Shown: piece by piece, positions 19,784-63,904 of the stretch
Position numbering within the stretch: position 1 is the first letter of the stretch
Layout of the letters: every line of letters begins with the position of its first letter
Origin: Microgenomates group bacterium GW2011_GWC1_46_15
GTDB lineage: Bacteria > Patescibacteriota > Microgenomatia > UBA1400 > UBA12028
Length of the DNA: 64,000 nucleotides
Assembly (NCBI GenBank): GCA_001002285.1
Contig: LCLX01000001.1
Location: forward strand, 316,895-380,894
Reading direction: 5' to 3'
Program-made: the position numbers and the translations under genes
Notes under the pieces: model-generated
Told to the model about the DNA's origin: nothing
The model's database searches: none
What the model saw: only the letters and a program-made list of their open reading frames with translations

Positions 19784-21436
19784 ATGCGGCGCATGTTTGT
19801 TTTTCTTATCTGCGTGATCGTTACACTATTCAGCCTCCGCTTCCTTTTTAACACAACATTTTTTCCGATTCATGATTACACGCACGTAACCCGCCTTGTC
19901 GAGATGGATCGGGCGCTCCGCGATGGGCATTTCCCCGTGCGATGGGTGCGCGATCTTGGGTATGGATACGGCGAGCCACTGTTTAGTTTTTATGGACCCG
20001 CACCGTTTTATCTTGCCGAAGTGTTCCACCTTCTTGGTTTATCGTTTCTCGTGAGCATTAAGGCGCTTCTTGTTGTGATGACGCTTGCCGGATTTGCCGG
20101 CATGTATCTTTTGGCGTCAAAACTGTTCGGGCGGACAGGCGGAATACTAGCGGCTTCCGCGTTTTTACTCATTCCATACCGGGCGCTTGACCTTTTTGTC
20201 CGCGGTGCGTTCAACGAGCTGTTTGCCATTACAGTAGTTCCTTGGATTATGTACGGCATGCTGAACATGAAAGAGAAAAAATCGTGGAGATGGGTCGGCG
20301 CCATCACTGGGCTGTTTTTCCTTCTTTTTACGTCGCACAACCTCATGACGATGATGTTTCTTCCGTTTTTATATATTTTTGGAGTTGTTGTATTGTTTGG
20401 AGTAAAAGATAAACGGACGTACGCGCTAAAACTTCATTCAGCGCTTCTCTTGGGGGTTGTCGCGGCGGCGTTTTATCTTTTCCCCTCGTATCTTGAAAAA
20501 GGATTTACGCAGGTGGACAAGTTGATCGGTGGGTATGGTCTGTACGCATATCACTTTTTATATATCCGCCAATTTTTCACGGGTGTATGGGGATACGGTG
20601 GCTCGATTTCCGGAATAGAAGATGGGCTTTCGTTCCATCTTGGACTGGCGCATGTGGTATTGGCGGCGGTTGGCATAGCGGGGTGGTTTTTTCTCAAAAA
20701 GAAACGATCTGAAAAAATGCTCGCAGTTTTTATTGCAGCAGCAGCAGCGCTTGCGCTCTTTCTAACAATTTACAAAAGCCAGTTCATTTGGGATAGAATT
20801 CCGTTTTTTGTGTATTTTCAATTTCCATGGCGGTTTCTTTCGGTCACAACAGTGTTTTTGCCGTTGATGGCGGGTGGGGCGGTACTATGGATTCATAAAA
20901 AGTCGCATCGTATTTTGGCGGTGTGTGTGGTCATCATTGCATTACTCATTCTTAACTTGAAATACTTTGCACCCTCCAAACTTCTTGATAATCCGAACGC
21001 GCTGTACTACTCCGACCCGCAGAGAATTCAGGACTCAATGAGCGACACACTGCCGGACTACATTCCAATTGGCATGAAAGTCATTCAACCGCCGTTCCAA
21101 CAACCGTTTGAGTTGCTTGGAGCTTCCACAAAAGATCAAATCCAAGTTTTTGTAGATCGCACACAAGAAAAATTGTTATCCTTTACTCTGCAAAAACCTA
21201 CGACATTAATCGTTCGCACGGCGTGGTTCCCCGGCTGGACGGTGTACGACTTTGATCAAAAAATCACATATACTGTTGATACCACGACGGATTTTATTTC
21301 GGTTCCGTTACAAGAAGGACAACATTTTATCAGCGTTGTATTTGAAAATACTCCAGTACGTGCGGTATCAAATCTGATATCGATACTTGGGTTGTTGGGT
21401 ATAGCGGGAGCATTGTTTTATGGTAGACATGATTGA
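19784..21436 (+). CDS. Polytopic membrane protein of a GT-C-like family with an HDxxH / FPxRW / GYGYP motif (possibly Pfam PTPS-related membrane domain).
   Basis: IHDYTHVTRLVEMDRALRDGHFPVRWVRDLGYGYGEPLFSFYGPAPFYL. Shares this signature with the genes at 26045 and 51999. About 12 TM segments plus a C-terminal extracytoplasmic domain. Confidence 0.55.
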   Translation: MRRMFVFLICVIVTLFSLRFLFNTTFFPIHDYTHVTRLVEMDRALRDGHFPVRWVRDLGYGYGEPLFSFYGPAPFYLAEVFHLLGLSFLVSIKALLVVMTLAGFAGMYLLASKLFGRTGGILAASAFLLIPYRALDLFVRGAFNELFAITVVPWIMYGMLNMKEKKSWRWVGAITGLFFLLFTSHNLMTMMFLPFLYIFGVVVLFGVKDKRTYALKLHSALLLGVVAAAFYLFPSYLEKGFTQVDKLIGGYGLYAYHFLYIRQFFTGVWGYGGSISGIEDGLSFHLGLAHVVLAAVGIAGWFFLKKKRSEKMLAVFIAAAAALALFLTIYKSQFIWDRIPFFVYFQFPWRFLSVTTVFLPLMAGGAVLWIHKKSHRILAVCVVIIALLILNLKYFAPSKLLDNPNALYYSDPQRIQDSMSDTLPDYIPIGMKVIQPPFQQPFELLGASTKDQIQVFVDRTQEKLLSFTLQKPTTLIVRTAWFPGWTVYDFDQKITYTVDTTTDFISVPLQEGQHFISVVFENTPVRAVSNLISILGLLGIAGALFYGRHD

Positions 21437-22871
21437 TGTAAAGAAAAAATCAGTGCGGGGCGTTGTGAGTTACGCATTCCGAACACTTGCTTTGCAGGCT
21501 ATTGGGTTTGTCGCGACCTTGCTCCTGGGGTATTACTTGTCGCCAGCTGACTTTGGCATTTATTTTATCGTAACTGCAGTCATTGGAGTCTTTACATTCT
21601 TATCTGATATTGGTTTGGCGGCAGCGCTTGTGCAGAAAAAAGAGGAACCAACGCGCGAGGATCTTCAAACAACGTTTACCGTTCAGCAAGGATTGGCGTT
21701 CACGATTTTTGGCGCAACAATTCTGTTGACGCCGTTCTGGAAAACGTATGCCAATCTCGATACCGAGGCGCTGTGGCTTTTATATGCGTTGGGTTTTTCA
21801 TTCGTGTTGGCCTCGCTCAAAACAATCCCATCTATTTTGCTTGAAAGAAAACTTGAGTTTACAAAACTTGTTTTTCCTCAAATCATTGAAAATGTCTTGT
21901 TCTACAGTATCGCGGTTGCCTTGGCCGCCTCAGGCTTTGGCGTGCGTAGTTATACCATCGCGGTATTGGCACGGAGCATTGGTGGAGTAATCGCGATTTA
22001 TTTTATTCAGAGTTGGCCCATTGGTTTTGCATTTTCCAAGAAGGCGCTCCATAACTTATTGCGGTTTGGCGCAAAGTTCCAGTTGAATGATTTTCTTGCC
22101 CGTATCAAAGACGATCTGTTTATTGTCGTGATTGCCAGATTTATTCCCGCGACGCAGATGGGATACTTGAGTTGGGCAAAGCGATGGTCAATGTTCCCGT
22201 ACCAGTTCAGCGTGAACAGCATTATGTCGGTTACGTTTCCAACGTTTTCCCGCCTTCAGGAGCATCCAGATAAACTCAAGCGCGCGATCGAGAAATCTAT
22301 GTACTTCGTTACGCTTGTTATCTTTCCCGTACTCGTGGGGTTGTGTGTGTTGGCGTATCCAATGATCGGCATCATTCCAAAGTATCAAAAATGGCTGCCC
22401 GCACTTCCCGCGCTGTACTTTTTCTGTATAAACATCGCATTCGCGGCGCTTTCAACCCCGCTGACAAATACGCTCAACGCAATCGGAAAAATTAATCAAA
22501 CACTCAAACTCATGCTCATGTGGACGGGGCTAACGTGGACGCTTACCCCGCTCGCCGTGATGATGTTTGGATTTACCGGTGTTGCGGTCGCTTCGGCGGT
22601 TATCGCGTTGAGTTCAGTTGCAACAATTTGGATGGTAAAGAAGTACGTGCGGATTAAAACTCTCGATCAGATTTGGAGGCAAGCGTTTGCCTCACTTGCA
22701 ATGGGTGCTGCAATCCTTCTTGTACAAAATATATTCCACGTAGGATTAGTAGAAGTGTTAGCAGAAATTGTTTTGGGTGGTCTTTTCTACCTCGTGTTGT
22801 TATTAATCACGGGCAAGAAAAAACTCTTTTTTGAGCTCGAGTCCATTAAACCTTTTTTTGTGAAAGGATAG
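21420..22871 (+). CDS. wzx: Wzx-type oligosaccharide flippase (MOP superfamily polysaccharide biosynthesis protein).
   Basis: 483 aa with about 12-14 TM segments. The N-terminal YAFRTLALQAIGFVATLLLGYYLSPADFGIYFIV region is typical of Wzx/RfbX. Confidence 0.65.
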   Translation: MVDMIDVKKKSVRGVVSYAFRTLALQAIGFVATLLLGYYLSPADFGIYFIVTAVIGVFTFLSDIGLAAALVQKKEEPTREDLQTTFTVQQGLAFTIFGATILLTPFWKTYANLDTEALWLLYALGFSFVLASLKTIPSILLERKLEFTKLVFPQIIENVLFYSIAVALAASGFGVRSYTIAVLARSIGGVIAIYFIQSWPIGFAFSKKALHNLLRFGAKFQLNDFLARIKDDLFIVVIARFIPATQMGYLSWAKRWSMFPYQFSVNSIMSVTFPTFSRLQEHPDKLKRAIEKSMYFVTLVIFPVLVGLCVLAYPMIGIIPKYQKWLPALPALYFFCINIAFAALSTPLTNTLNAIGKINQTLKLMLMWTGLTWTLTPLAVMMFGFTGVAVASAVIALSSVATIWMVKKYVRIKTLDQIWRQAFASLAMGAAILLVQNIFHVGLVEVLAEIVLGGLFYLVLLLITGKKKLFFELESIKPFFVKG

Positions 22872-50952: not shown

Positions 50953-52002
50953 ATGCGAGTCCAGATTGATGTCTCTCAGCTCAATGCGATGAATGCGTAT
51001 CGTGGCGTTGGCGTGTACACCGATCTTTTGTTCCAACACTTGCGCCACCTTAAAACTTTAGACACATTTTCTTTAACAACAGAAAAAACAAAAGAACATC
51101 CCGATCTCATCCATTATCCGTATTTCGATTTGTTTTTCCACACTCTCCCTATCAAAAAGCGGGCAAAAACAGTTGTAACAATCCACGATGTTATTCCGTT
51201 GGTTTTTCCCGAGCACTATAGATCTGGTATCAAAGGATCGATCCGTTTTTTACAACAGCTTCTCGCGCTCAACACAGTTGATGCTGTGATTACTGATTCG
51301 ATGTGCTCAAAAAAAGATATTATTCAACATCTTAAGTTTCCTGCTGAAAAAGTATACGTTGTGCATTTGGCGGGAAACCCACTCCTTCATGCCACACCAA
51401 AGACTGATGTTGATGCGGTGCTAAAAAAATATAATATTCCAGAAAAATATCTCTTGTATGTCGGCGATATTAACTACAACAAAAATCTTCCAGCATTGTT
51501 GCGCGCGTTCTCAACACTTTCGCAAAATCTTCATCTTGTTATGGTCGGGCGGTCGCTGAACAATATAGAAATTCCAGAAGGCAGGTGGATTCACGATACT
51601 ATTCAGGAAAAGGGAATCGCGCAAAGAGTTCATCTCCTTACAGATATTCCAAAACATCCTGCGACTGAACTTGCTGCGTTATTTACTGGTGCATCGGCAT
51701 ATGTTCAACCCTCTCTGTATGAGGGGTTTGGCCTTTCTGTGCTTGATGCAATGCAGTGCGGAGCACTCGTCATTTCTTCAACTGGTGGGTCGCTTCCAGA
51801 GGTTGTGGGTGATGCGGCATTATTTTTTGATCCCCGAAATGAACATGAAATGGCAGATACGATGAATCAAGCCCTTTCTCTCTCTATGACAAAGAAGAAA
51901 GTTTTCCTTTCGTTGGCTCAGCACAACCTCAAACGGTTTTCTTGGGAGAAAACGGCACAGAAAACATACGCCATCTATAAAAAAGTACTTGAAACAGTAT
52001 GA
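50953..52002 (+). CDS. GT4 (GT-B) glycosyltransferase.
   Basis: SLYEGFGLSVLDAM (Ex7E) and GGSLPEVVGDAALFFDP. Confidence 0.75.
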   Translation: MRVQIDVSQLNAMNAYRGVGVYTDLLFQHLRHLKTLDTFSLTTEKTKEHPDLIHYPYFDLFFHTLPIKKRAKTVVTIHDVIPLVFPEHYRSGIKGSIRFLQQLLALNTVDAVITDSMCSKKDIIQHLKFPAEKVYVVHLAGNPLLHATPKTDVDAVLKKYNIPEKYLLYVGDINYNKNLPALLRAFSTLSQNLHLVMVGRSLNNIEIPEGRWIHDTIQEKGIAQRVHLLTDIPKHPATELAALFTGASAYVQPSLYEGFGLSVLDAMQCGALVISSTGGSLPEVVGDAALFFDPRNEHEMADTMNQALSLSMTKKKVFLSLAQHNLKRFSWEKTAQKTYAIYKKVLETV

Positions 52003-54749
52003 AACGGTTTTTATCTATCATTTTGATTCTCGCTTTTGCATTACTCGCACTTCCTATGTTTCATTCAGGATTTCCTTTTACGCACGACGGGGAAAATCAT
52101 CTGGCACGGATTGCAAACTATGCTGTCGCGCTTAAACAGGGCCAGTTTCCACCGCGGTGGGCGCCAACATTCTGGGGCGGATATGGCTATCCCGTGTTCA
52201 ACTTCAACTATCCACTAGCCAACATTGCAGCACTTCCATTTTTAGCGGTTGGACTTCATGTTGAAACAACACTCAAACTTCTTTTTCTCCTTGGTATAGC
52301 GCTTGGAACGGTGGGCACGTATTTCTATTGCCGAACGTTTATTCCAAAGAGTGCCTCACTTTTCGCAACATGTGTATACCTCCTATCCCCATTTCTTTTT
52401 TCTAATGTATATTTGCGTGGAGCAATCGGCGAAGTCTTGGGGTACGCTCTTTTACCCATAACACTATGGATGGTTGAGCGCACGCGTCAGCACCCCTCAA
52501 TGCAGAATAAACTTTTTCTTTTTATATCAATACTTTCTTTGGCACTGGCGCATAACATTGTCGCGATGTTTGTCATCCCGCCTCTTCTTATCTATATTGC
52601 ACTACGGGCCAGAACTTGGCATGTTATCCTGCCATCATTTTTTGGACTGTCCGCATCATCCTTTTTCTGGATCCCCGCATTGGTTGAGAAAAAATTTGTT
52701 ACGTTAGATCTTGTGAGCGTGTCAAACCAGTACTATCTTCATTTCCCAACACTACAACAGCTTCTCTTTTCCGTGTTTGAACATGGATTTTCATATCCTG
52801 GACCGATTGACACAATGTCGTTCCAAATAGGGGGACTCATTCTTATATCACTCTTTTTTGGTATCCTTCACGTTGTTTTCCGCACAAAACACGCAAAACA
52901 AATTTTTGGATTAGTATGCGGAGTTCTTACACTTTTTTTTATGATGCTTTCTTCCTCGCTTTTTATATGGAAACTCATTCCAATGCTTTCGTATGTGCAG
53001 TTTCCATGGAGACTATTAGGTCCAGTCGTATTTGTTGGCTCGTTACTTGCGGGATACGTGTATCTTGATGCTTCCCGTGCGGTGCGCGCAGTATTGATTG
53101 GAGTATTGATGTTTTCATTGATTTCAACCGCAAAAAAACCAGTAACGGATTTTATTCATCATGATGATCTGTATTACAAGACATTCACGCAAACGTCCAC
53201 AATTCTTGATGAAAACCGTCCAAGAACGCTCGGTATTCAACCTGGAACACTGAGTAGCCAGAAGCCAGTTCTGGAAAGCAAAGCGGATATTCAGATTCAG
53301 TCATGGAGTGGTACGCAACATGTCTACGCGATCAATACCGAAAAAGAACAAACAATAACGGAAGAAACGGCATACTTTCCTGGATGGGAGACAAGGATTG
53401 ATGGCAAACTGGCCACAGTAACATTTGAAAAAACACAAGGCCGTATCAGTTATAGTATCCCCGCAGGAAAACACACCGTTCAAACACGGTTTACACAGAA
53501 CACACCGCCAAGGTTGGTTGGAAATGGCATCACAATAGCGTCATTTCTCGGGATGGGCAGTCTTATAGTGATACAGAAGAAAAAGAAAAAAAATATGACA
53601 CCATTAGCAAAACGCACTTTTTTTCTCATTAGTGCTGCTTTTGTGATTTGGCGAGTACTCCTTCAAGTTTTTGCATTGCTAAGTCCCCGGTTTTTGTCTT
53701 TCCAGCCGAGTTATCCGTACTACGATGCTCTTCTTGTTCCGCTTGGCCCATGGTGGCTTGTGCGGTGGGCTGGGTTTGACGGGGTACACTACCTCACAAT
53801 TGCGATGAAAGGATATCTTGGAACGGGTCTTATTCAAGCATTTTTCCCCATGTATCCATTTGCGATGTATTTCTTTAACCTCTTTCGTAATCTTTTAATG
53901 TCGGGATTACTTGTTTCTCATCTGAGTTTCATAGCAGCACTTTTCTTGTTGTATAAACTTTTTCGTTTGGATGAGAGAAGAAACGTTTCTGTATTAGCAG
54001 TTCTTTGCATGCTTATTTACCCCGTCTCATTTTTCTTTGCTTCGTTGTACACAGAATCATTATTTTTACTATGCATTGTTGGAGCATTCTATGCTGTGCG
54101 GAAAAAACAATGGTGGTTTGCGGCGCTGTGTGCTGCCGTAGCAAGTGCGACTCGGATTACAGGAATTTTTATTGTTCCAGCAGTCATCATAGAAGCAATC
54201 ATGCTTTCAAAAGAAAAAAATGAAAAAGTTCCATGGCAAACAATCGCGATTCTTTTAACAGGAGTACTGGGTCTTCTTTTTTACATGGGATATTTGGCTG
54301 TTACTTTCCGCGACCCATTATATTTTTTGCACGTACAAACTGCATTTGGAGGAGGAAGGCAGGAAACACCAGTGTTGATTCCACAGGTATTTTACCGGTA
54401 CATTAAAATTTTCATGACAGCGCGCACAACATCACCATTGTTAATGTACGCGTATGCTCAAGAGTTTTTAATGACATTGTCGGTTGGCCTCGTTCTTTTC
54501 TTCGCAACACTCAAAAAATGGTTAAGGCCGTCGTATCTTCTCTATGCGTGGGGGGCATACTTGCTTCCACCGCTCACAGGAACGTTTCAAAGCATGCCAA
54601 GATACATGATGGTAATTTTCCCGCTGTTTTTACTACAAGCAAAATTGTGGAAACATAAACCAATACTTTTTATTTTGTTAGCGATTGTGCTAGTCATTCA
54701 CCTTGCGGTGAACACAATGCTGTTTTTTCAAGGATATTGGGTGTCGTAA
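51999..54749 (+). CDS. Apparent fusion of two GT-C-like proteins. The N-terminal about 532 aa belongs to the HDxxH / FPxRW / GYGYP family. The C-terminal about 385 aa is PIG-V/DUF2029-like (WxGxDGxHYLxIAxxGY). The two are joined across an A8 tract.
   Basis: N-terminus: HDGENHLARIANYAVALKQGQFPPRWAPTFWGGYGYPVFNFNYPL. C-terminus: WLVRWAGFDGVHYLTIAMKGYLGTG. The junction reads ...VIQKKKKKN-MTPLAKR, with AAAAAAAATATGA at 53586..53598. Confidence 0.55.
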   Translation: MKRFLSIILILAFALLALPMFHSGFPFTHDGENHLARIANYAVALKQGQFPPRWAPTFWGGYGYPVFNFNYPLANIAALPFLAVGLHVETTLKLLFLLGIALGTVGTYFYCRTFIPKSASLFATCVYLLSPFLFSNVYLRGAIGEVLGYALLPITLWMVERTRQHPSMQNKLFLFISILSLALAHNIVAMFVIPPLLIYIALRARTWHVILPSFFGLSASSFFWIPALVEKKFVTLDLVSVSNQYYLHFPTLQQLLFSVFEHGFSYPGPIDTMSFQIGGLILISLFFGILHVVFRTKHAKQIFGLVCGVLTLFFMMLSSSLFIWKLIPMLSYVQFPWRLLGPVVFVGSLLAGYVYLDASRAVRAVLIGVLMFSLISTAKKPVTDFIHHDDLYYKTFTQTSTILDENRPRTLGIQPGTLSSQKPVLESKADIQIQSWSGTQHVYAINTEKEQTITEETAYFPGWETRIDGKLATVTFEKTQGRISYSIPAGKHTVQTRFTQNTPPRLVGNGITIASFLGMGSLIVIQKKKKKNMTPLAKRTFFLISAAFVIWRVLLQVFALLSPRFLSFQPSYPYYDALLVPLGPWWLVRWAGFDGVHYLTIAMKGYLGTGLIQAFFPMYPFAMYFFNLFRNLLMSGLLVSHLSFIAALFLLYKLFRLDERRNVSVLAVLCMLIYPVSFFFASLYTESLFLLCIVGAFYAVRKKQWWFAALCAAVASATRITGIFIVPAVIIEAIMLSKEKNEKVPWQTIAILLTGVLGLLFYMGYLAVTFRDPLYFLHVQTAFGGGRQETPVLIPQVFYRYIKIFMTARTTSPLLMYAYAQEFLMTLSVGLVLFFATLKKWLRPSYLLYAWGAYLLPPLTGTFQSMPRYMMVIFPLFLLQAKLWKHKPILFILLAIVLVIHLAVNTMLFFQGYWVS

Positions 54750-55138: not shown

Positions 55139-55165
55139 TGGTTCAGTATACGATATACTATGCAC

Positions 55166-56065
55166 ATGAACATCCTCGTTACGGGCGGGTCTGGGTTTTT
55201 AGGAAAACATCTTTGCCGTGTGCTGGTTTCTGCCGGTCACAGCGTGTTGAACATTGATAAAAAACCATTTTCAGAAGTTGAAACAATTCAAACAGACGTA
55301 CTGGATCAGGCAAAAATCGAACAGTATTTTGCAGGAAAAGATGCGGTGTTTCACTTGGCAAGCTATATTGAGGCGGGTGAGTCGGTTGAGCAGCCGGAAA
55401 AATACCTGCAGAACAACGTTATGGGAACCCTTTCTGTTTTGGAGGCAATGCGGAAACACGATGTAAAGCGTTTTTTGTTCAGTAGCAGCGCCGCTATCTA
55501 TGGCAACCCACTTCACACACCGATTAAAGAAGATGAGCGTACTATCCCAATCAATCCGTACGGTGTAACAAAGATGGCGATGGAAGGGTTAGTATCTTCG
55601 TATGTTGAGTCGTACGGGTTTACTGGTGTCGCACTGCGATACTTCAACTTGTACGGCCCTGGAGAAGACCACGTTCCGGAAACACACGCAATTCCCCGGT
55701 TCATCCAACAAATCAATAAAGGAGAAGACGTTACAATCTGGGGCGACGGAAGCCACAAAAGAGACTTCGTATACATTGATGACATTGTCCGCGCACACCT
55801 TTTAGCGCTCGAACTTCCGCAGGGCTATCACTATATGAATCTCTCCGGGAAAAACGCAACATCGGTCATTGATGTGATTCATATGCTTGAAACGATACTT
55901 GGAAAACAGGCAAACGTGAAACATTTTGAGTTTCGGCCTGGTGATCCGCTTGAGCTTTTTGCCGATGCGTCAAAAGCAAAAGAAGTTTTGAAGTGGGAAC
56001 CACAGGTAGGATTAGAAGAAGGCCTTCAGAAAACCGTAGAGTGGTTCCGTTCACACACGGCGTGA
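55166..56065 (+). CDS. NAD-dependent sugar epimerase (GalE-like UDP-hexose 4-epimerase family).
   Basis: ILVTGGSGFLGKHL start, YGVTKMAMEG (YxxxK), and a length of about 300 aa. Confidence 0.75.
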   Translation: MNILVTGGSGFLGKHLCRVLVSAGHSVLNIDKKPFSEVETIQTDVLDQAKIEQYFAGKDAVFHLASYIEAGESVEQPEKYLQNNVMGTLSVLEAMRKHDVKRFLFSSSAAIYGNPLHTPIKEDERTIPINPYGVTKMAMEGLVSSYVESYGFTGVALRYFNLYGPGEDHVPETHAIPRFIQQINKGEDVTIWGDGSHKRDFVYIDDIVRAHLLALELPQGYHYMNLSGKNATSVIDVIHMLETILGKQANVKHFEFRPGDPLELFADASKAKEVLKWEPQVGLEEGLQKTVEWFRSHTA

Positions 56066-56122
56066 TCTACAAAAATACACAAAGATCTAGTTGATTCTTT
56101 TCCGCATTTTTTATACACTTAT

Positions 56123-56270
56123 GATCCATTCGCCGCATCGCGCGGTGACCGGCACTTCCTATCCGTTGCTTGTGAACAAAGAGCATACACTCTTTTCACA
56201 AGTATCCACGCCGAACGGATAACCTTTACACACCAAGAGTCCCTCTTCGTGGGGACAAGAAAGGCATACT
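56123..56270 (+). promoter_or_regulatory. Structured 5' leader A. It has a nested inverted repeat plus a GTCCC/GGGAC hairpin ahead of the Shine-Dalgarno, and is conserved with leader B.
   Basis: TATCCGTT(56160-67)/AACGGATA(56214-21) enclosing CTTGTGAA(56169-76)/TTCACAAG(56195-202). Hairpin GTCCC(56239-43)-8 nt-GGGAC(56252-56), then AAGAAAGG and the ATG at 56271. It shares GATCCATT, CACACCAA, GGGACAAGAAAGG and ATGCTTAC with 59562..59771. Confidence 0.4.
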
Positions 56271-56516
56271 ATGCTTACACCTGGAGATAAAAAGTGGATC
56301 AAAGGAAATTTTAAGGAAGAGTTTCCTATAGCTTTTAAAACGGCTTTCAAAGCGGCCTTTAAACCAGCATTTGATGAAGCCTTTGACGAATCATTTGGGA
56401 GAGTGTATCTGTTTCTCCGCAATGATATTGCTCAATTTAAGGACGAAATCTTGGCGGTTCTTAATCCTCGTATCCAAAACAGGGGCTCCAGAAAACCGTG
56501 GAGTGGTTTAGAATAA
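56271..56516 (+). CDS. Small protein with Phe-every-4th tetrad repeats (paralog A).
   Basis: 81 aa: MLTPGDKKWIK...AFKTAFKAAFKPAFDEAFDESFG...LRNDIAQFKDEIL. It ends 4 nt before the GT-C gene at 56521. It is paralogous to the gene at 59772. Confidence 0.55.
   Translation: MLTPGDKKWIKGNFKEEFPIAFKTAFKAAFKPAFDEAFDESFGRVYLFLRNDIAQFKDEILAVLNPRIQNRGSRKPWSGLE
56331..56396 (+). repeat. In-frame 12-bp tandem repeat (about 5.5 units) encoding (A/S)F(K/D)x tetrads.
   Basis: The units are GCTTTTAAAACG, GCTTTCAAAGCG, GCCTTTAAACCA, GCATTTGATGAA, GCCTTTGACGAA, and TCATTTGGG. Confidence 0.6.
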
Positions 56517-56520
56517 AGTA

Positions 56521-58026
56521 ATGCGGTTTTTTATTCTGCTTTTTTGTATTGGCTTAGCCCTTCGTATCTACCCGAGCTTTCATCATATTGTATTTCCGTA
56601 TGACCAAGCGCGCGACGCGCTTATGTTCCAGGACATGGTAAATCGCACACACCTGCCGCTTCTCGGTCCTGTGACCGATATTCCCGGGGTTCACCATGGC
56701 CCGCTTTTCTATCTTCTTATGATTCCGCTGTACGCACTGAGTAACAGTGATCCATGGCTTCCGGTGTTTTTTCTTATGCTGGTAAATCTTTCAACGATGA
56801 TTCCGCTCTATTTTTTCACAAAAGAAGTTTTTCATGACAAAAGAGTGACCATAATCACACTGGTATTGTTTATAGTTTCGTATGAGATGATTTCGTACTC
56901 AAAATGGATCAGCAATCCCGTACTGGCGGTTCCACTCTTTGCAACGTTTCTCCTCCTTTTATGGAGGGTATGGAAAACACAGAAAAAACAGGTGTTTTGG
57001 CTGGGGCTTGTTTTTGGACTTCTTGTGCAGAGTGAAATTGTGCTGGCTTACCTGCTTTTTCCTTGCTATATCATTTTATCTAAAGGGCGCGTACATATAA
57101 AACAGTGGCTGCTTTTTCATTTGGGCGTTGGTGTAGGAATTCTTCCGTATCTCGTTGCAGAATTAAAGTATCATTTCCAAGCAACAAACGCCCTCATCCA
57201 TTTCCTGGGAAGTACTGCACAAAAAAATCCCCTCGTTTTTCTCACAACATTTCGGCATGGTATCAGCATATTGAGTACATTGGTAAGAAATAATCTTTTT
57301 GGACTTCCCCCCATTTCTGCTTTATTAACGTTTGTGATTATCACCGTGTTGTGCTTTTTCGCGGTACGGAAAACGATACCCTCATGGAAGCCGGCTCTAC
57401 ACTTTCTATATGGCATGTTAGCGTGTGGCGTTGGTGTCCTCATGTTCGGTAAGTCTCCGGAGATATTCTTTTTTGCAGGATTCGGTTCAATTCTACTCAT
57501 CATCGCCGCGGTCTTTCTTGTCGTTATGATGAAAGAGAAGCAGTGGGAGTTTGCCGCTTTTATCACGTGTATTATTCTCGCAAGCCAGATAGCGTTGACT
57601 GTTGAACAGGCGCGTGCTGGCAACGCATATATTCAGGCGCAAAAAGGAGTGTTGTTTGACCAGCGGTTGCAGGTTCTTGATGCGATATATACGCGTGTTT
57701 CCAGTGATACACCATTTACTATTAGTGTTTTTGGGACGCCATACGGGGTACGTACATCATGGGCCTACTATTTTTCGTACTACAGTTCTCGCCAAGCGGT
57801 GATACTGCCGAAGTGGTATGGGTACACCGTGAATGGTTTTATTGGAGATGATATTCTTCCGCACGTTGATGCGCCAGCGCGAGTTCACATTGCGGTGTAT
57901 GAACCGGAGTTTTCCATTGCGCCACAATATAAGGATGAGTTTACGGCGTACCAAAACGCGCACACCACGATTGTTGAAAGATTTACACTCAATAATCACA
58001 GTATTGAAATACGAAAACCGAAATAA
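56521..58026 (+). CDS. GT-C fold membrane glycosyltransferase (paralog of 13966).
   Basis: FPYDQARDALMFQDMVNRTHLPLLGPVTDIPGVHHGPLFYLLMIPL aligns with the first loop of the 13966 gene. 501 aa, polytopic. Confidence 0.65.
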   Translation: MRFFILLFCIGLALRIYPSFHHIVFPYDQARDALMFQDMVNRTHLPLLGPVTDIPGVHHGPLFYLLMIPLYALSNSDPWLPVFFLMLVNLSTMIPLYFFTKEVFHDKRVTIITLVLFIVSYEMISYSKWISNPVLAVPLFATFLLLLWRVWKTQKKQVFWLGLVFGLLVQSEIVLAYLLFPCYIILSKGRVHIKQWLLFHLGVGVGILPYLVAELKYHFQATNALIHFLGSTAQKNPLVFLTTFRHGISILSTLVRNNLFGLPPISALLTFVIITVLCFFAVRKTIPSWKPALHFLYGMLACGVGVLMFGKSPEIFFFAGFGSILLIIAAVFLVVMMKEKQWEFAAFITCIILASQIALTVEQARAGNAYIQAQKGVLFDQRLQVLDAIYTRVSSDTPFTISVFGTPYGVRTSWAYYFSYYSSRQAVILPKWYGYTVNGFIGDDILPHVDAPARVHIAVYEPEFSIAPQYKDEFTAYQNAHTTIVERFTLNNHSIEIRKPK

Positions 58027-59505
58027 TTATTTCGCGACTTGTTTTGTTTTATACACCGTAATTGCATCGTTGATTTTCACCGTTTCTAGAATAGTAAGGT
58101 GTTTTGCGACACGGTCCCACCACGGATCAAAAAACTGTTTGTGGTCGAACTTTTCAACAATCAAGATAATAAACTCCGGCTTTTGTGTGTTTGCTGGAAC
58201 GTGCTTCTGTGGGATATATGTGATCTCCCCCGGAGCGTAACTAAACTCAGTAGGAAGCGGTTTCCCTTTTAGATTTTCTGTTAGGTACAGCAGTTGGTAT
58301 GTGTAGTCATAAATCTCAGGAACGAATTGGTATGAAGAAAATGGTTTGCCATCACTCATTGCATACGCGGTTTCAATAGCTTTGAGCTTTGGAGCCAGTA
58401 GAATACGATCGGTTTGTGCGAGAGAACGATAGTTCTGCCAAGATCCATACATACTCCCCACGCTCAAAATAAGAAATGCTATCACGATGTGAGGTTTATA
58501 CTTTGGAATAACAGACTCAACTGCTTTTGAGAAAAGATAAATCCAAAGAGGGGTAAGCGCGACTAGATAATATGGTTTGATTGGAAGGTCTAAATAGAGA
58601 AGAAATGTTCCAGCAAGAATGAGAAGAAGAACGCGGTACTCATATACTTTGCGATTTTTATAGAGAAAGAATAATACAAGCAAAACGCTTGCAACGGACA
58701 ACGCCATATTTGCTAAAGGAAGCGTGCTTAAGTGGATGTTGTCATAAAAGTACCGCGCAACCTCGACAATTCTGGCAGGTCCATCACTATTCGGTTGAAT
58801 GATTGCTGATTGTTCACGGTAGCGTGTTACAAAGTTCATAACGGCGCGGGTCTGCAGAAAATCATGACGGAGTTCAAACATCGCGGAAGGGGCGAGTGTT
58901 ATAAAGAAAGCAACGCACATCAAAACGAATTGTTTGAGTTGCATCTTCATTTTTGAAAGGAAGAGCAAAACGATCACAAGCGGGAGAAACACAATCGCAA
59001 ACGCCACTTCAAAATGGAACATAAGAGAAGAAAAAAACGCGATGCCCATAAGAACCCAAGTGTTGGCATATTTTCCAGATTTCAACTTTTTCAAAAGCAA
59101 AAAAACCGGCAAAGTACAAAAGGAAGTCATATACGGAGTCCACGCGGTTTGTTGACTCGCTATGACGCTAATAGATACAGCATACAAAAAAGCGGAAAAC
59201 CTTCCGACGTACCGGTAAAACACATACAGCGTAATAAGTGAGAGGAACAAGACACCAACAACGCTTGCAAGCGGGTGAAAACCGCCGAGGATATTAAACG
59301 GAAGGGCAATGTAGTACCACGCGGGGCCGTAAAAAAGACCGCTGATGCTTGTCGTCGGGCCAACCAATGCCGGTTTGTGCTGAAGATACATCTCCAACAT
59401 GACTAATGAGTCTTTTGCGCCGTCAAACATAAAGGGAAAGTTTCCACCAAGAATAGGAACAATACGGAGAGCAAGTGCAAAAAGAGCGAGAAGGATAAAC
59501 ACCAT
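58027..59505 (-). CDS. GT-C fold membrane glycosyltransferase (paralog of 13966 and 56521).
   Basis: FPFMFDGAKDSLVMLEMYLQHKPALVGPTTSISGLFYGPAWYYIALPF. Convergent with 56521; the two stop codons form TAATTA. Confidence 0.65.
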   Translation of the reverse strand: MVFILLALFALALRIVPILGGNFPFMFDGAKDSLVMLEMYLQHKPALVGPTTSISGLFYGPAWYYIALPFNILGGFHPLASVVGVLFLSLITLYVFYRYVGRFSAFLYAVSISVIASQQTAWTPYMTSFCTLPVFLLLKKLKSGKYANTWVLMGIAFFSSLMFHFEVAFAIVFLPLVIVLLFLSKMKMQLKQFVLMCVAFFITLAPSAMFELRHDFLQTRAVMNFVTRYREQSAIIQPNSDGPARIVEVARYFYDNIHLSTLPLANMALSVASVLLVLFFLYKNRKVYEYRVLLLILAGTFLLYLDLPIKPYYLVALTPLWIYLFSKAVESVIPKYKPHIVIAFLILSVGSMYGSWQNYRSLAQTDRILLAPKLKAIETAYAMSDGKPFSSYQFVPEIYDYTYQLLYLTENLKGKPLPTEFSYAPGEITYIPQKHVPANTQKPEFIILIVEKFDHKQFFDPWWDRVAKHLTILETVKINDAITVYKTKQVAK

Positions 59506-59561
59506 ACGTCAAGAGTATCTCACGTGTTTTCCTTTGCTACAAGCCATCGGAAGAACAGATT

Positions 59562-59771
59562 GATCCATTAAGATCATGTTGATTTTTCCACGCACACTGC
59601 GTATGCTCATCTTCCGTTCACTTCAGTGCACAGTGGACATCTCCCCTATTCGTCACTTGCGCGCAAACAAGCATGCGACAAGTGTCCACACCAACGAATA
59701 CGCACATCGTACACACGAACTGTCCCCTTGGGGACACCAATCGTCCCCCTCTGGGACAAGAAAGGAACGTC
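59562..59771 (+). promoter_or_regulatory. Structured 5' leader B, homologous to leader A. It lies in the divergent region between the minus-strand GT-C gene and small gene B.
   Basis: GTGGACA(59633-39)...CACTTG(59654-59)...CAAGTG(59689-94)/TGTCCAC(59693-99) nested inverted repeat. Hairpins GTCCCC-TT-GGGGAC (59722-35) and GTCCC-CCTCT-GGGAC (59743-57), then AAGAAAGG and the ATG at 59772. Confidence 0.4.
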
Positions 59772-60137
59772 ATGCTTACTTTAGGAGATAAAAAGTGGAT
59801 TAAGGCATATTTTGATGGGTCGTTTGACCGCAAATTTCCCTCAGCCTTCGATAAATCTTTCGATAAATCCTTCGATAAAGCCTTTAAACCAGCCTTTAAA
59901 GAAGCCTTTGGAGAAGTCCATATCTTGCTCCGCAATGATATCGCTCAGTTTAAAGATGATATTCTCACAGAACTTCATCCCCTGCGGGAAGATCATGATG
60001 TTCTCTCATATCATTCATCCGAGCACTCAGATCAACTGGAGAACCATGACCGCCGTATTACCGCGTTGGAGCGCCACAATCCCCGTTCGCCAGTAGCCGC
60101 TGTTTCAGAAAAAGTACGGTTGAAGTACAAAGCGTAA
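59772..60137 (+). CDS. Small protein with Phe-every-4th tetrad repeats (paralog B, with a C-terminal extension).
   Basis: 122 aa: MLTLGDKKWIK...FDRKFPSAFDKSFDKSFDKAFKPAFKEAFGE...LRNDIAQFKDDIL, then an acidic/His-rich tail. The ORF-track start is 59673, and the start at 59772 is supported by paralogy. Confidence 0.55.
   Translation: MLTLGDKKWIKAYFDGSFDRKFPSAFDKSFDKSFDKAFKPAFKEAFGEVHILLRNDIAQFKDDILTELHPLREDHDVLSYHSSEHSDQLENHDRRITALERHNPRSPVAAVSEKVRLKYKA
59835..59918 (+). repeat. In-frame 12-bp tandem repeat (about 7 units) encoding F(D/K)(K/P)(S/A) tetrads.
   Basis: The units are TTTCCCTCAGCC, TTCGATAAATCT, TTCGATAAATCC, TTCGATAAAGCC, TTTAAACCAGCC, TTTAAAGAAGCC, and TTTGGAGAAGTC. Confidence 0.6.
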
Positions 60138-60152
60138 GACAAAACATAATCC

Positions 60153-60167
60153 ATCAGATGCTACAAT
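60153..60167 (+). promoter_or_regulatory. Promoter-like 15-mer ATCAGATGCTACAAT (extended -10 TGnTACAAT), copy 1.
   Basis: An identical 15-mer recurs at 60849..60863. This copy lies 19 nt upstream of the ATG at 60186. Confidence 0.35.
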
Positions 60168-60185
60168 GGCAGTATACTAAGAAGT

Positions 60186-60845
60186 ATGTACCGCAAAGTG
60201 ATATCCCGGATAAATAAGAGTTACTATCTTCACAAACTAAGTGAACCGATTCGCACATTCACCGTGCGGGGGAAACTGTATCGTTATTTTTGTCACCGGT
60301 ACAACACAACATGGTTAAATGAGCGCGCAGTTGAGGTGCCGCTCATATGGTCTGAAGTGCAGCGTTACCCAAACGATCAAGTTCTTGAAGTTGGGAATGT
60401 TTTGTCACATTATTTCCCGACTACTCATCAAGTCGTTGATAAATACGAAACTGCTCCAAAAGTTATGAATCAAGACATTGTTAAATTTCATTCCAAGAAA
60501 AAATTTATGCTTATTGTAAGCATTTCGACCCTAGAACATGTTGGTTGGGACGAATCGCCCCGCGATAAACAGAAAATACTTACTGCCATAAAGGTATTAA
60601 TGCGTTTGTTGCGTCCGGGAGGCACATTGATTATGACATTACCATTAGGATACAATCCTCATTTGGATCAATATCTTCGAACAAATACATTACATTTTGA
60701 TACATCACTCTTTTTAAAACGTACTTCCGCTTTTAACACTTGGCGTGAAGTGAGTAAGCATGTTTTGGAAGAGCATCCTCAGTATAATCACCCTTTTCAA
60801 AATGCCAACGTCATTGTCATCGGTACGTATCGAAAAGAACTATAG
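60186..60845 (+). CDS. Putative SAM-dependent methyltransferase-like protein.
   Basis: VLEVGNVLSHY (degenerate motif I) and ISTLEHVGWDE...LLRPGGTLIMTLP (motif II/III-like). 219 aa. Confidence 0.4.
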   Translation: MYRKVISRINKSYYLHKLSEPIRTFTVRGKLYRYFCHRYNTTWLNERAVEVPLIWSEVQRYPNDQVLEVGNVLSHYFPTTHQVVDKYETAPKVMNQDIVKFHSKKKFMLIVSISTLEHVGWDESPRDKQKILTAIKVLMRLLRPGGTLIMTLPLGYNPHLDQYLRTNTLHFDTSLFLKRTSAFNTWREVSKHVLEEHPQYNHPFQNANVIVIGTYRKEL

Positions 60846-60848
60846 TTG

Positions 60849-60863
60849 ATCAGATGCTACAAT
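60849..60863 (+). promoter_or_regulatory. Promoter-like 15-mer ATCAGATGCTACAAT, copy 2, positioned for a leaderless transcript.
   Basis: TACAAT ends 6 nt before the ATG at 60870. The same -10-to-ATG spacing occurs at TGATACAAT (37572..37580) and the ATG at 37587. Confidence 0.35.
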
Positions 60864-60869
60864 ACGCGC

Positions 60870-61529
60870 ATGCGGATTGTTGTTATTATCCCTGGCTACA
60901 ACGAGGAAAAATACCTTGAAGAAACACTGAGGGGGGTGTTAAAGGTAACTAAAGACGTTATCTATGTTGATGATGGTTCTTCGGACTCTTCTGTGTCTAT
61001 CGCGAAAAAATATCTTACACATGTGTTGGTACACGAAACAAATCTTGGCAAAGGAGCGGCGCTCAAAACGGGATGCGAGTACGCGTTTTCACACCTCAAA
61101 GCAGATGCGGTAGTGTTTATGGACTCGGATAATCAACACAGAGCATCAGATCTTCCCCGCTTTTTTTCAGAGTTAAAAAAGGGAACTCCCGTCGTGTTTG
61201 GTGTGCGTAAGTTTGGTTCCGCGACACCGTTGATGCGTTTTCTCGGCAATAAGTTTGCGTCGGTGCTCATGAGTTTCCTTTATAGGCGATACATTCCAGA
61301 CATTCCGTCTGGCTATAAAGCGATGAATAAATCCGCATATAAAGAATTAGTGTGGAATTCCGCTGGGTATGAGGTAGAAATGGAGATTGCGGTCCGTGTG
61401 GTTCAAAAAAAAATAAAGTACACAGAAATTGAGATTGAGGCGATCTATCACGATAATGACAAAGGGATGACGGCGATTGATGCCCTGCACATCGCAAAAT
61501 GTTTGCTACAATGGAGAATAGGTCTATAA
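60870..61529 (+). CDS. GT2 polyprenyl-phosphate sugar synthase (DPM1/GtrB-like).
   Basis: IVVIIPGYNEE, VDDGSSDSS, MDSDNQH. The ORF-track start is 60846. Confidence 0.7.
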   Translation: MRIVVIIPGYNEEKYLEETLRGVLKVTKDVIYVDDGSSDSSVSIAKKYLTHVLVHETNLGKGAALKTGCEYAFSHLKADAVVFMDSDNQHRASDLPRFFSELKKGTPVVFGVRKFGSATPLMRFLGNKFASVLMSFLYRRYIPDIPSGYKAMNKSAYKELVWNSAGYEVEMEIAVRVVQKKIKYTEIEIEAIYHDNDKGMTAIDALHIAKCLLQWRIGL

Positions 61530-61537
61530 GGAGAGTT

Positions 61538-61861
61538 ATGATTCCACTTCAGGCAATTTCCGTCATTTTCGCTCTTTTCATGTTATATATCGCGCGGATT
61601 CATCACAAAAAAGAACATATTGAAACATTTGAGTATGTGTTATGGGCATTTATCTGGGTTGCATTTATGTTTGCCGCGATTTTTCCACAGACGTTCCAGG
61701 GAATTGCTGAAACACTCAATATTTCACGCGTCTTTGATTTGCTTGTCATTATTGGCATGATGATTCTTACATTCCTCACATTTCAAAACAGAATTTACTT
61801 CAAAAGATTAGAAAAAAAGTTAGAGAATGTAATAAGAAAAAGGGCGATTGATGAAGGGTAA
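61538..61861 (+). CDS. Small membrane protein, DUF2304-like (typical partner of DPM-type GT2 enzymes).
   Basis: About 108 aa with three TM helices: IFPQTFQGIAETLNISRVFDLLVIIG. It lies immediately downstream of a GT2 gene, as in known GT2-DUF2304 pairs. Confidence 0.45.
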   Translation: MIPLQAISVIFALFMLYIARIHHKKEHIETFEYVLWAFIWVAFMFAAIFPQTFQGIAETLNISRVFDLLVIIGMMILTFLTFQNRIYFKRLEKKLENVIRKRAIDEG

Positions 61862-62858
61862 GATTCTTATTACAGGTGCGGCAGGTTTTATCGGAAGCAA
61901 TCTCGTTGATCTTCTTCTTCAAGAAAAAGTCCCAGTGAACGAACTACGATTGTTTGTGTACAACGATGAGTCGCTAGAGAATTTACCCGATTTGCCATTC
62001 GATATTGTGCGTGGGGACATCCGCGACAAACAAACGGTAAACCGTGCGATGGATGGAGTTAAAACGGTATACCATTTAGCAGCGCGGATAGATTTTGATG
62101 GAAAAACATACGAAGAATATGAAGATGTGAACGTGGAAGGAACGCAGAATCTTCTTGATGCATGCCGTGGTAAAAAGATTCAAAAGTTTGTTTTTTTTAG
62201 TAGTATCGGAGTGTTTGGTATGCCGGCAGATACTGGAGATATTCTTGGCTGGGACGAAACACATCCAAAAACGTATACAAACTTTTATGGTAGATCAAAG
62301 TGGGAGGGTGAACAGCGCGTGATGAAGGCGCACAAGCAATGGGGGCTTCCATATGTGATTGTGCGTCCCGCGAGCGTGTATGGTCCCAGAGAAAAAGGTC
62401 CAACATTAGCGCTATATAAGGCGATAAAACATCATGCGTTTGCAATGATCGGAGGCGGAAAAAACGTGATGCATTATGTGTATGTTAAAGATCTCGTAAG
62501 AGGGGTTCGGCAAGCCCAGTTGAGCAAAAAAACATTGGGAAATTATATTCTTGCCGGCGCCGAACCAACACAATTTCGCGATGTTGTCCGTTATGTTGCC
62601 GAAAGTATCAACGAACACGTTCCTCCGTGGCACATTCCCGTGCCAGCTGCGCTCGTGTTGGGATACGGTTTGGGAGCAGTAGGCCGCGCTACAGGAATAA
62701 AACCTCCGCTGTTTCCCTCAAGGGTAAGAACGATGACGACAAGCTATTACTACTCAATCGAAAAAGCAAAAAGGGAGATCCATTATCACCCCGAAACATC
62801 ATTTCAGCAGGGGACACGCGTAACTGGAGCATGGTATCTTGAGCACCACTCTCTATAA
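61848..62858 (+). CDS. NAD-dependent epimerase/dehydratase (SDR).
   Basis: ILITGAAGFIGSNL, YGRSKWEGE (YxxxK). 336 aa. Confidence 0.75.
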   Translation: MMKGKILITGAAGFIGSNLVDLLLQEKVPVNELRLFVYNDESLENLPDLPFDIVRGDIRDKQTVNRAMDGVKTVYHLAARIDFDGKTYEEYEDVNVEGTQNLLDACRGKKIQKFVFFSSIGVFGMPADTGDILGWDETHPKTYTNFYGRSKWEGEQRVMKAHKQWGLPYVIVRPASVYGPREKGPTLALYKAIKHHAFAMIGGGKNVMHYVYVKDLVRGVRQAQLSKKTLGNYILAGAEPTQFRDVVRYVAESINEHVPPWHIPVPAALVLGYGLGAVGRATGIKPPLFPSRVRTMTTSYYYSIEKAKREIHYHPETSFQQGTRVTGAWYLEHHSL

Positions 62859-62869
62859 CGATCATCACT

Positions 62870-63904
62870 ATGAAACATCCTAAAATTTCCGTTATTATCG
62901 TTACACATAACTCTGAGGCATACATTCGGCAATGTTTGGACGCTTTACTTCGTGTAACATACAAACCAATTGACATCTACGTGATTGACAACGTTTCAAC
63001 AGATAACACAACGCGCATACTAAACACATATAAACGAATTCATGCAACGTATCTCACAAAAAATATCGGGTTTGCAGAAGCCAACAATCAAGTGTGGAAC
63101 ACTATTCATGATGAGTATGTGTGCTTACTAAATCCAGACACAGTTGTAGAAAAATCATTTTTCGAATCTCCTCTTGCTGAAATGGAAAAAAATCCGCGTG
63201 TAGGAGCATGCCAGCCAATTGTGTATCTTCTTAAAGATAAAAATACCATCAATCTTACGGGAAAGAAAACACACTTTTTAGGATTTGATTGGATCGCGGG
63301 GTACAAAACAACTCGTGTTCCAATGCAACAGGAAATCACATCGTTTTCCGGATCAGGAGTGCTTTTGCGGTCGTCCGCGCTTCGTGATGTTGGATTTTTC
63401 GACCCATCGTACTTTATGTATTACGAAGATAGTGATTTGGCGTGGAGGATGCGTATGCGTGGATGGAGCATTATGTTTATCCCGCAAAGCAAAATGTTCC
63501 ACGACTACAAATACATGCCGGAGAAAGGAGGACTACATTTTTCAGAAAAGATCTTTTTCAACGAAAGAAATCGACTGATGACCGTGCTGAAAAATTATTC
63601 GTTGTGGACATTGATCTTAATACTTCCCGCTTTTCTTGCAACAGAACTTGGCCTTTTGGTGGTCGCTCTTTTGCAGGGATGGTTTCGTGCAAAGATCCGC
63701 AGTTACTTTTCTCTTTTCATTATGCTTCCTTCTATTTTGAAAAAACGTTCTCTGGCGCAAAAACAAAGAACAGCGCAAGATCGTGATATTGGTCAAGGAT
63801 TTGAAACTGCTATTACGTTTGAAAAGTTCCAGCACCCCCTCGTGCGGTATATCGCAAACCCAATACTCAAGTGGTATTGGGGAATAATTCGACATATCAT
63901 ATAA
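62870..63904 (+). CDS. GT2 glycosyltransferase, WbbL-like.
   Basis: ISVIIVTHNSE, VIDNVSTDNT, YYEDSDLAWR. C-terminal TM segment. Confidence 0.7.
   Translation: MKHPKISVIIVTHNSEAYIRQCLDALLRVTYKPIDIYVIDNVSTDNTTRILNTYKRIHATYLTKNIGFAEANNQVWNTIHDEYVCLLNPDTVVEKSFFESPLAEMEKNPRVGACQPIVYLLKDKNTINLTGKKTHFLGFDWIAGYKTTRVPMQQEITSFSGSGVLLRSSALRDVGFFDPSYFMYYEDSDLAWRMRMRGWSIMFIPQSKMFHDYKYMPEKGGLHFSEKIFFNERNRLMTVLKNYSLWTLILILPAFLATELGLLVVALLQGWFRAKIRSYFSLFIMLPSILKKRSLAQKQRTAQDRDIGQGFETAITFEKFQHPLVRYIANPILKWYWGIIRHII

Follow-up and report, generated by a model that had tools for sequence, protein, structure and literature searches.

A candidate family of small, probably coiled-coil proteins with a variable phenylalanine-tetrad spacer in bacteria of the Candidate Phyla Radiation

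Proteins of the DUF1640 group have a head domain and a C-terminal membrane anchor, and DUF16 comprises small coiled-coil proteins whose function is not known and which are encoded in many copies by a reduced genome. The DUF1640 proteins are integral membrane proteins in which the ATKxD motif opens the C-terminal stalk (PMC4786415). In the coiled coils of the Tcar0761 type (PDB 5APZ; Hartmann et al. 2016, eLife, PMC4786415), nonads form alpha/beta coiled coils, and the beta-layer, with the consensus [aliphatic]-A-T-K-[polar]-[DE], forms layers in trimeric structures and can cap a coiled coil N-terminally. The R-hxxhE motif, with Arg at heptad position g, hydrophobic residues at a and d and Glu at e, is a determinant of parallel three-stranded coiled coils, as in the short examples of coronin-1, ccbeta and GCN4p-M3, and it is also found in some dimers (PMC3653964). 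Here we describe two small genes with elements that resemble these systems, open reading frames (ORFs) A and B, in a 64,000-nucleotide stretch of DNA from Microgenomates group bacterium GW2011_GWC1_46_15 (contig LCLX01000001.1), referred to below as the window.

Judged by their sequences, A and B are members of a widespread, undescribed family of small proteins in bacteria of the Candidate Phyla Radiation (CPR). We lean, with modest confidence, towards an explanation in which they are paralogous copies of a cassette in which a small ORF follows a promoter and a structured leader, the encoded protein forms a trimeric rod, copy A is a remnant and the link to glycosylation is specific to the lineage. 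The fold class itself is known; what is new is the phenylalanine tract with a period of 4.00 and the way in which an N-cap, a variable spacer, a core His and R-IxxLE are combined.

The two genes and their family

ORF A occupies 56271..56516 on the plus strand and encodes 81 amino acids (aa), a truncated family member in which the N-terminal motif, eight Phe tetrads (56310-56405) and LRNDIAQFKDEIL are kept. ORF B, at 59772..60137 on the plus strand, is full-length and carries an MLTLGD N-terminus and nine Phe tetrads (59811-59918). The original prediction had located both genes correctly, although its length of 122 aa for ORF B has to be corrected to 121 aa plus stop, and its view of them as paralogs is upheld by the segments MLT(P/L)GDKKWIK and LRNDIAQFKD(E/D)IL, which are common to both. 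These two segments have no further occurrence in the six-frame translation of the window, and a search of the same 64 kb with a hidden Markov model (HMM) of the family found no additional paralogs. In the alignable blocks of A and B the identity is 0.755, 0.878 and 0.531 at the first, second and third codon positions, respectively, and 13 codons differ by synonymous changes only; because of this pattern we read both ORFs as protein-coding. The alignable similarity extends about 200 nucleotides (nt) upstream of each ATG. Direct reading of the two sequences revealed no signal peptide or hydrophobic segment in either protein.

The family was delineated by an exhaustive HMMER search with a five-sequence profile against 1.84 billion cluster representatives, which returned 110 representatives at E ≤ 1e-3, nearly all of 70-160 aa. 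A word-indexed protein search retrieved very close relatives only, and every named match, from Pacebacteria, Buchananbacteria, WWE3 and Roizmanbacteria, is a hypothetical protein of a CPR bacterium. ORF A is 100% identical to DCX25_03765 of 'Candidatus Pacebacteria bacterium', identical copies of it are present on 16 contigs, and a 150-aa relative is found in a metagenome-assembled genome of 'Candidatus Buchananbacteria'. No known family had been recognised from the sequence in the first place, and profile searches of Pfam, NCBIfam and PADLOC likewise gave no match for A or B; nothing on the family was found in the literature on small coiled-coil proteins of CPR bacteria and on Phe zippers or tetrad repeats. 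Among the contigs of GTDB genomes a protein-pattern scan gave no confirmed relative, and a 17-nt exact DNA pattern gave 106 chance matches, of which none encodes a confirmed family member; the retrieval of loci with an alignment of 64 diverse members was defeated by the divergence of that alignment. The record matching the window is labelled 'Candidatus Pacebacteria' and a syntenic relative, with 89-97% nucleotide identity, is labelled 'Candidatus Buchananbacteria'. These names belong to different CPR superphyla, and at least one of the two labels is probably wrong.

From the N-terminus to the C-terminus the family members consist of an M-L-T-K-x-D motif, a central tandem-repeat spacer that varies in type and length, and a conserved C-terminal module with the consensus ...(R/K)ND(I)xxFKDEIxxEL..LRE(E/D)...H.D.LE(N)HExRIxxLE. 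In an alignment of 105 members the N-terminal residues T3 and D6 are conserved in 67/79 and 77/82 sequences, whereas in the C-terminal module the counts are 93/103 for D62, 85/97 for H92, 92/97 for R95, 96/97 for I/L/V96, 80/96 for L99 and 92/96 for E100. Of the 127 small proteins retrieved, 91 contain the pattern H[ED]xR[ILVM]xx[LIV]E, 66 have M-[LIV]-[TS]-x-x-[DE] within their first 60 residues and 27 have tetrad tracts of 4 to 21 units, the last fraction being inflated by the presence of tetrads in the query profile. Both window copies match the N-terminal pattern (MLTPGD in A, MLTLGD in B) and contain the ND(I)xxFKD(E/D)I block in the form LRNDIAQFKD(E/D)IL. The H-[ED]-x-R-[ILVM]-x-x-[LIV]-E module is found in ORF B, as NHDRRITALE, and not in ORF A; in B the whole C-terminal module spans residues 53-100 (59928-60071, plus strand) and includes H92 and R95-I-T-A-L-E100 (60054-60071).

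The shortness of ORF A is explained by comparison with P0004 on locus L127, the closest full-length ortholog of A, against which the window copy shows a single clean gap of 143 nt. The junction lies between 56469 and 56470 and, since 143 equals 47 x 3 + 2, the last 16 codons are out of frame. The segment taken out is ...LQEDH...LENHDLRITALE..., and the H-E-x-R-I-x-x-L-E module is gone with it, so that A is a partial family member only, whereas the promoter region, leader, start codon, tetrads and FKDEIL block are retained. A syntenic relative (loci L001-L004 and L007) has a full-length gene of 150 aa at position A and a gene of 97 aa at position B. The sequence comparison suggests that ORF A is probably a decaying deletion remnant and that ORF B is intact; the promoter, leader and translated stub of copy A would still feed the glycosyltransferase gene that starts 4 nt downstream.

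We considered whether the genes could be remnants of a phage or another mobile element with no function for the host. The C-terminal module does match PHROG 5225, a phage protein group whose function is not known: residues 64-111 of B align to profile positions 26-74 of 92 with E = 4.5e-5, and 15 of 64 family members match it, the best at 1.5e-7. One relative also carries a precomputed DUF2730 match, and the family genes lie at scattered genomic positions. The PHROG match is confined to the C-terminal module, however, with the N-terminal motif and the repeats outside it, and no relative was found by tblastn in 50,697 phage records or among the IMG/VR contigs. The neighbours of the family genes are housekeeping genes and not phage genes, synteny is kept between related genomes, and PADLOC, as noted above, gave no match, so we regard a phage or mobile-element origin as very improbable.

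Predicted structure and the phenylalanine tetrads

An AlphaFold2 monomer model of ORF B, computed with a 64-sequence alignment, has helices at residues 4-21, 24-102 and 107-120 (predicted local distance difference test score, pLDDT, 91.6; predicted template modelling score, pTM, 0.50), and in the model of a relative with 21 tetrads one unbroken helix covers residues 5-185 (pLDDT 86.7). Such models are typical of coiled-coil subunits. With hydrophobic residues at 89, 92, 96 and 99 of B, I96 falls at heptad position a and L99 at d, and in this inferred register R95-I96-T-A-L99-E100 fits Arg(g)-h(a)-x-x-h(d)-Glu(e); the element is absent from ORF A. By sequence, the most conserved element of the family appears to be an R-hxxhE trimerisation motif. 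His92 falls in the d layer one turn before R95-E100, and in a trimer it would form a ring of three core His that could bind a metal ion or sense pH.

These features point to a protein that would self-assemble into a cytoplasmic, parallel coiled-coil rod, most likely a homotrimer, nucleated by the near-invariant R(g)-I(a)-x-x-L(d)-E(e). The cytoplasmic location is proposed because neither secretion nor membrane insertion is indicated by the sequences. The N-terminal T..D motif would act as a helix or beta-layer cap, the repeat tract would be a length-variable spacer that sets the length of the rod, and the conserved surface charges D62, E67, R72, E73, D87 and E90 are a likely partner-binding surface. 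The protein is probably, then, a cytoplasmic, parallel and trimeric rod of variable length, and for its role in the cell we infer a self-assembling rod or adaptor.

The family motif M-L-T-K-x-D resembles MATKDD, the N-capping beta-layer motif of Tcar0761, and the proteins, like those of the Tcar0761 type, are small and prokaryotic, contain no enzymatic domains and have a heptad-based flank. At the spacer position P0053, P0123 and the members at L013/L015 carry tandem FA(T/K)KxDL nonad-like repeats, similar to the nonads of Tcar0761 (MATKDDIAN) and to the repeated ATKEDI of Kcr_0859; with the latter, in 6H9L, P0053 gives a weak alignment (E = 0.064), and near-consensus beta-layer copies are seen downstream of the N-terminus in 20 of the 127 small proteins retrieved. 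Unlike in beta-layer coiled coils, the spacers of the window proteins are tetrads with a period of 4.00 and not nonads or hexads in a heptad frame, whereas the relatives at L013/L015 do have nonads. In sequence, the similarity to 5APZ does not reach significance (E = 3.3 and 0.36). Sequence profiles searched against the PDB gave generic coiled-coil matches only, the best (0.0018) being a mimic of SARS-CoV-2 HR1, and nothing specific; a Foldseek search of the PDB with the model had 6H9L as its nominal top match, at a meaningless E = 3.2, and nothing below E = 3.

The DUF1640 or CCDC90-like proteins (PF07798; MCUR1, CCDC90B and Kcr_0859, PDB 6H9L) share the ATKxD motif and a coiled-coil stalk with the family, and PF07798 matches 6 of 64 family members weakly (best 1.7e-5) and neither A nor B at E ≤ 1. 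The window proteins differ from them in having neither a membrane segment, as judged from sequence, nor a globular head, the model of ORF B being all-helical. Two family members match Mycoplasma DUF16 / MPN010 (PF01519; PDB 2BA2, cited in PMC4786415) weakly and at a marginal level, the better with E = 0.0071, but the phylum and the C-terminal module differ. The R-hxxhE coiled coils, for their part, are united by a sequence determinant and are not a homologous family, and the conserved His of the preceding d layer is not in the published motif.

The Phe residues of ORF A are F14, 18, 22, 26, 30, 34, 38 and 42, eight exact units, and those of ORF B run from F14 to F46 at every fourth residue, nine exact units; the fixed position of Phe in each tetrad had been recognised from the outset, with a slightly low count of six to eight units. 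The units have the form (A/x)-F-(D/K)-x, with Pro common inside them, and in the DNA each tract is a tandem array of 12-nt repeats. Their number differs between the window and the syntenic locus L001, with 9 against 3 units at locus B and 8 against 10 at locus A, and the flanking genes are 89-97% identical in nucleotide sequence over the three stretches compared. The sequences suggest that the tract evolves by repeat slippage, and it would serve as a spacer of variable length. Long (K/D)F(K/D)x / AFDx tetrad tracts are also found in P0073 (578 aa), an unrelated protein that by its appearance may be an FtsX-like membrane permease, and in P0058 (203 aa), a small protein with a different C-terminus; given these tracts, the Phe tetrads may be a more general low-complexity module.

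That the repeat region is helical, as originally proposed, is predicted by AlphaFold2 both for ORF B and for the 21-tetrad relative. The hydrophobic moment of the tract is maximal at 90 degrees per residue, a period of 4.00 (0.53 in B and 0.47 in A), and falls to 0.17 in B and 0.08 in A at 100 degrees, the alpha-helical value, whereas in the C-terminal half the moment peaks at 100 degrees, a period of 3.6. Calculated for a standard alpha-helix, the Phe residues precess by 40 degrees per unit and wrap 280-320 degrees around the axis, so that the earlier idea of a Phe stripe on a single helix face is unsupported, the period of 4.00 turning the stripe into a spiral. A further candidate, an amphipathic membrane-binding Phe helix, was rejected on account of the moment of just 0.08-0.17 at 100 degrees. 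For alpha-helical coiled coils the range of periodicity is 3.33 to about 3.9 (PMC4786415). By analogy with the beta-layer nonads that fill the same spacer position in relatives, the Phe tetrads could be a distinct supersecondary element which, in a trimeric frame, might give rise to a new Phe-cored fibre, strongly right-handed or non-canonical in some other way and with its length tuned by slippage, although we consider this doubtful.

Promoter motif and leaders upstream of the genes

A promoter-like region is found on the plus strand ahead of each gene. That of copy A, at 56082..56119, comprises the motif AAGATCTAGTTGA (56082-56094), a -35-like TTGATT (56091-56096), a 17-nt spacer and a -10-like TACACT (56114-56119), and that of copy B, at 59570..59607, comprises the motif AAGATCATGTTGA (59570-59582), the same -35-like TTGATT (59579-59584), a 17-nt spacer and a -10-like TATGCT (59602-59607); the hexamers of both copies were read by eye, those of copy A being below the scan threshold. 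Transcription is predicted to begin near 56126 for copy A and near 59614 for copy B. The motif AAGATNNNGTTGA occurs twice in the window (56082 and 59570; 0.20 expected), both times upstream of a family gene, and once per locus in five loci of distant relatives from the 'DK(K/Q)WI' subfamily, where it lies 46-47 nt before the family ATG. In these five loci a sigma-70-like TTGA(C/A)(G/A)-N16/17-TA(A/G)(A/G)AT ends 9 nt before the ATG, which implies a leaderless or near-leaderless mRNA, or a second promoter upstream. An AGGAG is seen between the -10 box and the start codon in L008-L016 (for example L010 2046-2091 and L013 2106-2152).

In the window AAGATNNNGTTGA lies about 190 nt upstream of the ATG instead of 46-47 nt, so the window genes carry an extra leader of about 150 nt. 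The leader of copy A (56120..56270, plus strand) is predicted to fold with -51.1 kcal/mol (z = -4.1 against shuffles) and contains a long central hairpin at 56160-56221, in which TATCCGTT...AACGGATA closes an inner CTTGTGAA..TTCACAAG stem, and a second hairpin, GTCCC 56239-56243 / GGGAC 56252-56256, next to the Shine-Dalgarno (SD) sequence AAGAAAGG at 56257-56264. The leader of copy B (59608..59771, plus strand) folds with -52.1 kcal/mol (z = -3.2) and has the same arrangement, with a central hairpin at 59647-59700 (TATTCGT...ACGAATA) and an SD-proximal hairpin, GTCCC 59743-59747 / GGGAC 59753-59757, ahead of the SD AAGAAAGG at 59758-59765. Between A and B the closing stem shows, by eye, a paired C-G to U-A change (TATCCGTT/AACGGATA versus TATTCGT/ACGAATA), and the inner stem has one compensatory G-C to A-U change among three A-type orthologs. 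In both leaders a 5' UCC(A/G)UUC segment is predicted to pair with the SD AAGAAAGG (in copy A, CUUCC/UCCAUUC). Over 59506-59771 the leader B region is 93.6% identical to its ortholog in L001. A conserved upstream ORF was rejected, the ATG-initiated frames being offset by a 1-nt indel with no common peptide, and so was a multi-copy mobile insertion, blastn having given no further leader copy either in the window or at unrelated loci.

The leaders hint that the cassette is controlled translationally, and perhaps the downstream operons as well, and on a regulatory reading the cassette would be mainly a control element, in which the promoter and an SD-sequestering leader govern the downstream operon and the ORF matters through translational coupling. 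The promoter motif is specific to family genes, both leaders fold much better than their shuffles, the predictions for both paralogs include an SD-proximal hairpin and anti-SD pairing, and the leaders are about 94% identical between genomes where the third codon positions of the adjacent 492-aa gene are 77% identical. Copy A, moreover, has kept its promoter, leader and start despite its truncated protein, and its stop lies 4 nt from the next ATG. On the other hand, purifying selection clearly acts on the protein, which is conserved in distant lineages that lack the leader, and in most loci the family gene stands alone or is convergent with its neighbour. The covariation in the leader comes from a comparison of five sequences of two types, and no Rfam family matched the window at gathering score; with the threshold relaxed to E ≤ 10 for 55950-60250 the sole match was a chance one to RSV_PBS (E = 4.8). 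We consider a mainly regulatory cassette unlikely.

Genomic context and meaning of the family

The gene immediately downstream of ORF A encodes a GT-C (PMT_2-like) membrane glycosyltransferase of 501 aa (56521..58026, plus strand; PF13231, E = 5.3e-6, 27.2 bits against a cutoff of 26.1) and is syntenic in L001-L004; the stop of ORF A lies 4 nt ahead of it, as first reported. Divergent from copy B lies a 492-aa membrane protein gene (58027..59505, minus strand), a distant paralog of the 501-aa GT-C gene (blastp E = 3e-15) with no Pfam match. ORF B precedes, as had also been described, co-oriented genes for a methyltransferase-like protein, a GT2, a DUF2304 protein, an SDR epimerase and a second GT2 (60186..63904, plus strand), with no terminator-like site between ORF B and 60186. 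The 219-aa methyltransferase-like gene (60186-60845) has weak Methyltransf_11/12/23 and NodS matches only, and it is missing at the syntenic locus of L001, where GT2 directly follows the family gene, an indel between close relatives.

On this arrangement the small proteins had been taken for accessory factors (scaffold, regulator or acceptor) dedicated to the adjacent GT-C/GT2 machinery. Both window copies do lie directly upstream of glycosyltransferase genes without terminators, the arrangement is retained in a relative, and in L019/L020 genes for GT-C-like membrane proteins are closely followed by distant family members. We compared 11 independent contexts of family members, and GT-C-like neighbours were found in three: window position A (also L001-L004 and L007), with a GT-C gene downstream; window position B (the same loci), with the GT-C-like gene divergent and the GT2 operon downstream; and L019/L020, with PMT_2-like and related membrane proteins. 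The remaining eight contexts have no glycosyltransferase neighbour, which speaks against a family that always adjoins GT-C genes and against a dedicated glycosylation role. There the family genes are found next to AlaRS and a 612-aa protein (L009/L010/L016), a PilX_N protein and PilM (L008/L014/L011), PurA and HisRS (L012, with two tandem family copies), an EamA transporter, L31 and RF1 (L013/L015), S15 (L005), miscellaneous and restriction-modification genes (L006), TsaE/TsaD (L017), and Ddl and thioredoxin reductase (L018). In the window at least 11 of roughly 60 genes are GT-C-like, and because of this density adjacency to a GT-C gene is expected by chance. An acceptor role is unlikely, as the proteins carry no signal peptide or transmembrane segment that would take them to the outer face, where GT-C enzymes act, and in the window lineage it is the GT-C-adjacent copy, A, that lacks the most conserved module of the family. 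A dedicated accessory role thus seems quite unlikely to us, and the link to glycosylation, as far as gene order tells, would be positional and lineage-specific and not a property of the family.

The tandem pair at L012 (3202-3804) consists of two family genes, of 82 aa and about 104-117 aa, in direct succession between purA and hisS, and it shows that the family has also been duplicated locally in another lineage. In the window itself, 18287-59505 is crowded with genes for GT-C-like membrane proteins; at least 11, each about 500 aa long, fall into three paralog groups (PMT, PMT_2 and PTPS_related), a Wzx/MurJ-type flippase is encoded at 21420..22871 and there are GT1, GT2 and GT4 genes, and the window looks like a large cell-surface glycosylation island. 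A 916-aa ORF at 51999..54749 corresponds to two overlapping genes in L001, a PTPS_related one of 532 aa and a PMT_2 one of 384 aa, and the sole cause of the split is a 1-nt poly-A difference at 53575-53600, GAAAAAAAATATGA in the window versus GAAAAAAATATGA in L001; a true fusion of genes, phase variation at the homopolymer and an assembly error are all conceivable. At 54752-55165 a 137-aa AdoMet decarboxylase-like gene (PF02675, E = 4.8e-14) stands by itself on the minus strand, with glycosylation genes on either side, and is kept in the relative.

Several points weigh against the explanation that we favour, a cassette with a trimeric rod, a copy A in decay and a lineage-specific tie to glycosylation. 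A monomer AlphaFold2 model is silent on the oligomeric state, and a core with Ile at a and Leu at d is the classical signature of a dimer. The MLT(P/L)GD of the window proteins misses the Ala and Lys of the beta-layer, keeping Thr and Asp alone, and departs from the consensus. The period of 4.00 lies outside the range accepted for coiled coils, so the spacer may not be a regular coiled coil, and Pro residues occur inside the tracts (P19 and P32 in A, P23 and P40 in B). The occurrence of an identical copy A on 16 contigs means that the stub may keep a residual function, and the members in L019/L020 also adjoin GT-C-like genes. All readings of the family, finally, draw on sequences and structural models.

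Most small proteins of CPR bacteria are unannotated, and the CPR make up a large share of bacterial diversity. The family described here is defined by its N-cap, variable repeat spacer, R-IxxLE trimerisation motif and conserved core His, and it offers structural biologists a concrete and easily expressed target. Its genes come with a recognisable promoter motif and, in the window lineage, with a leader that may regulate downstream glycosyltransferase operons, and its Phe tetrads provide a natural experiment on coiled-coil periodicity at a value, 4.0, that exceeds the accepted limit.

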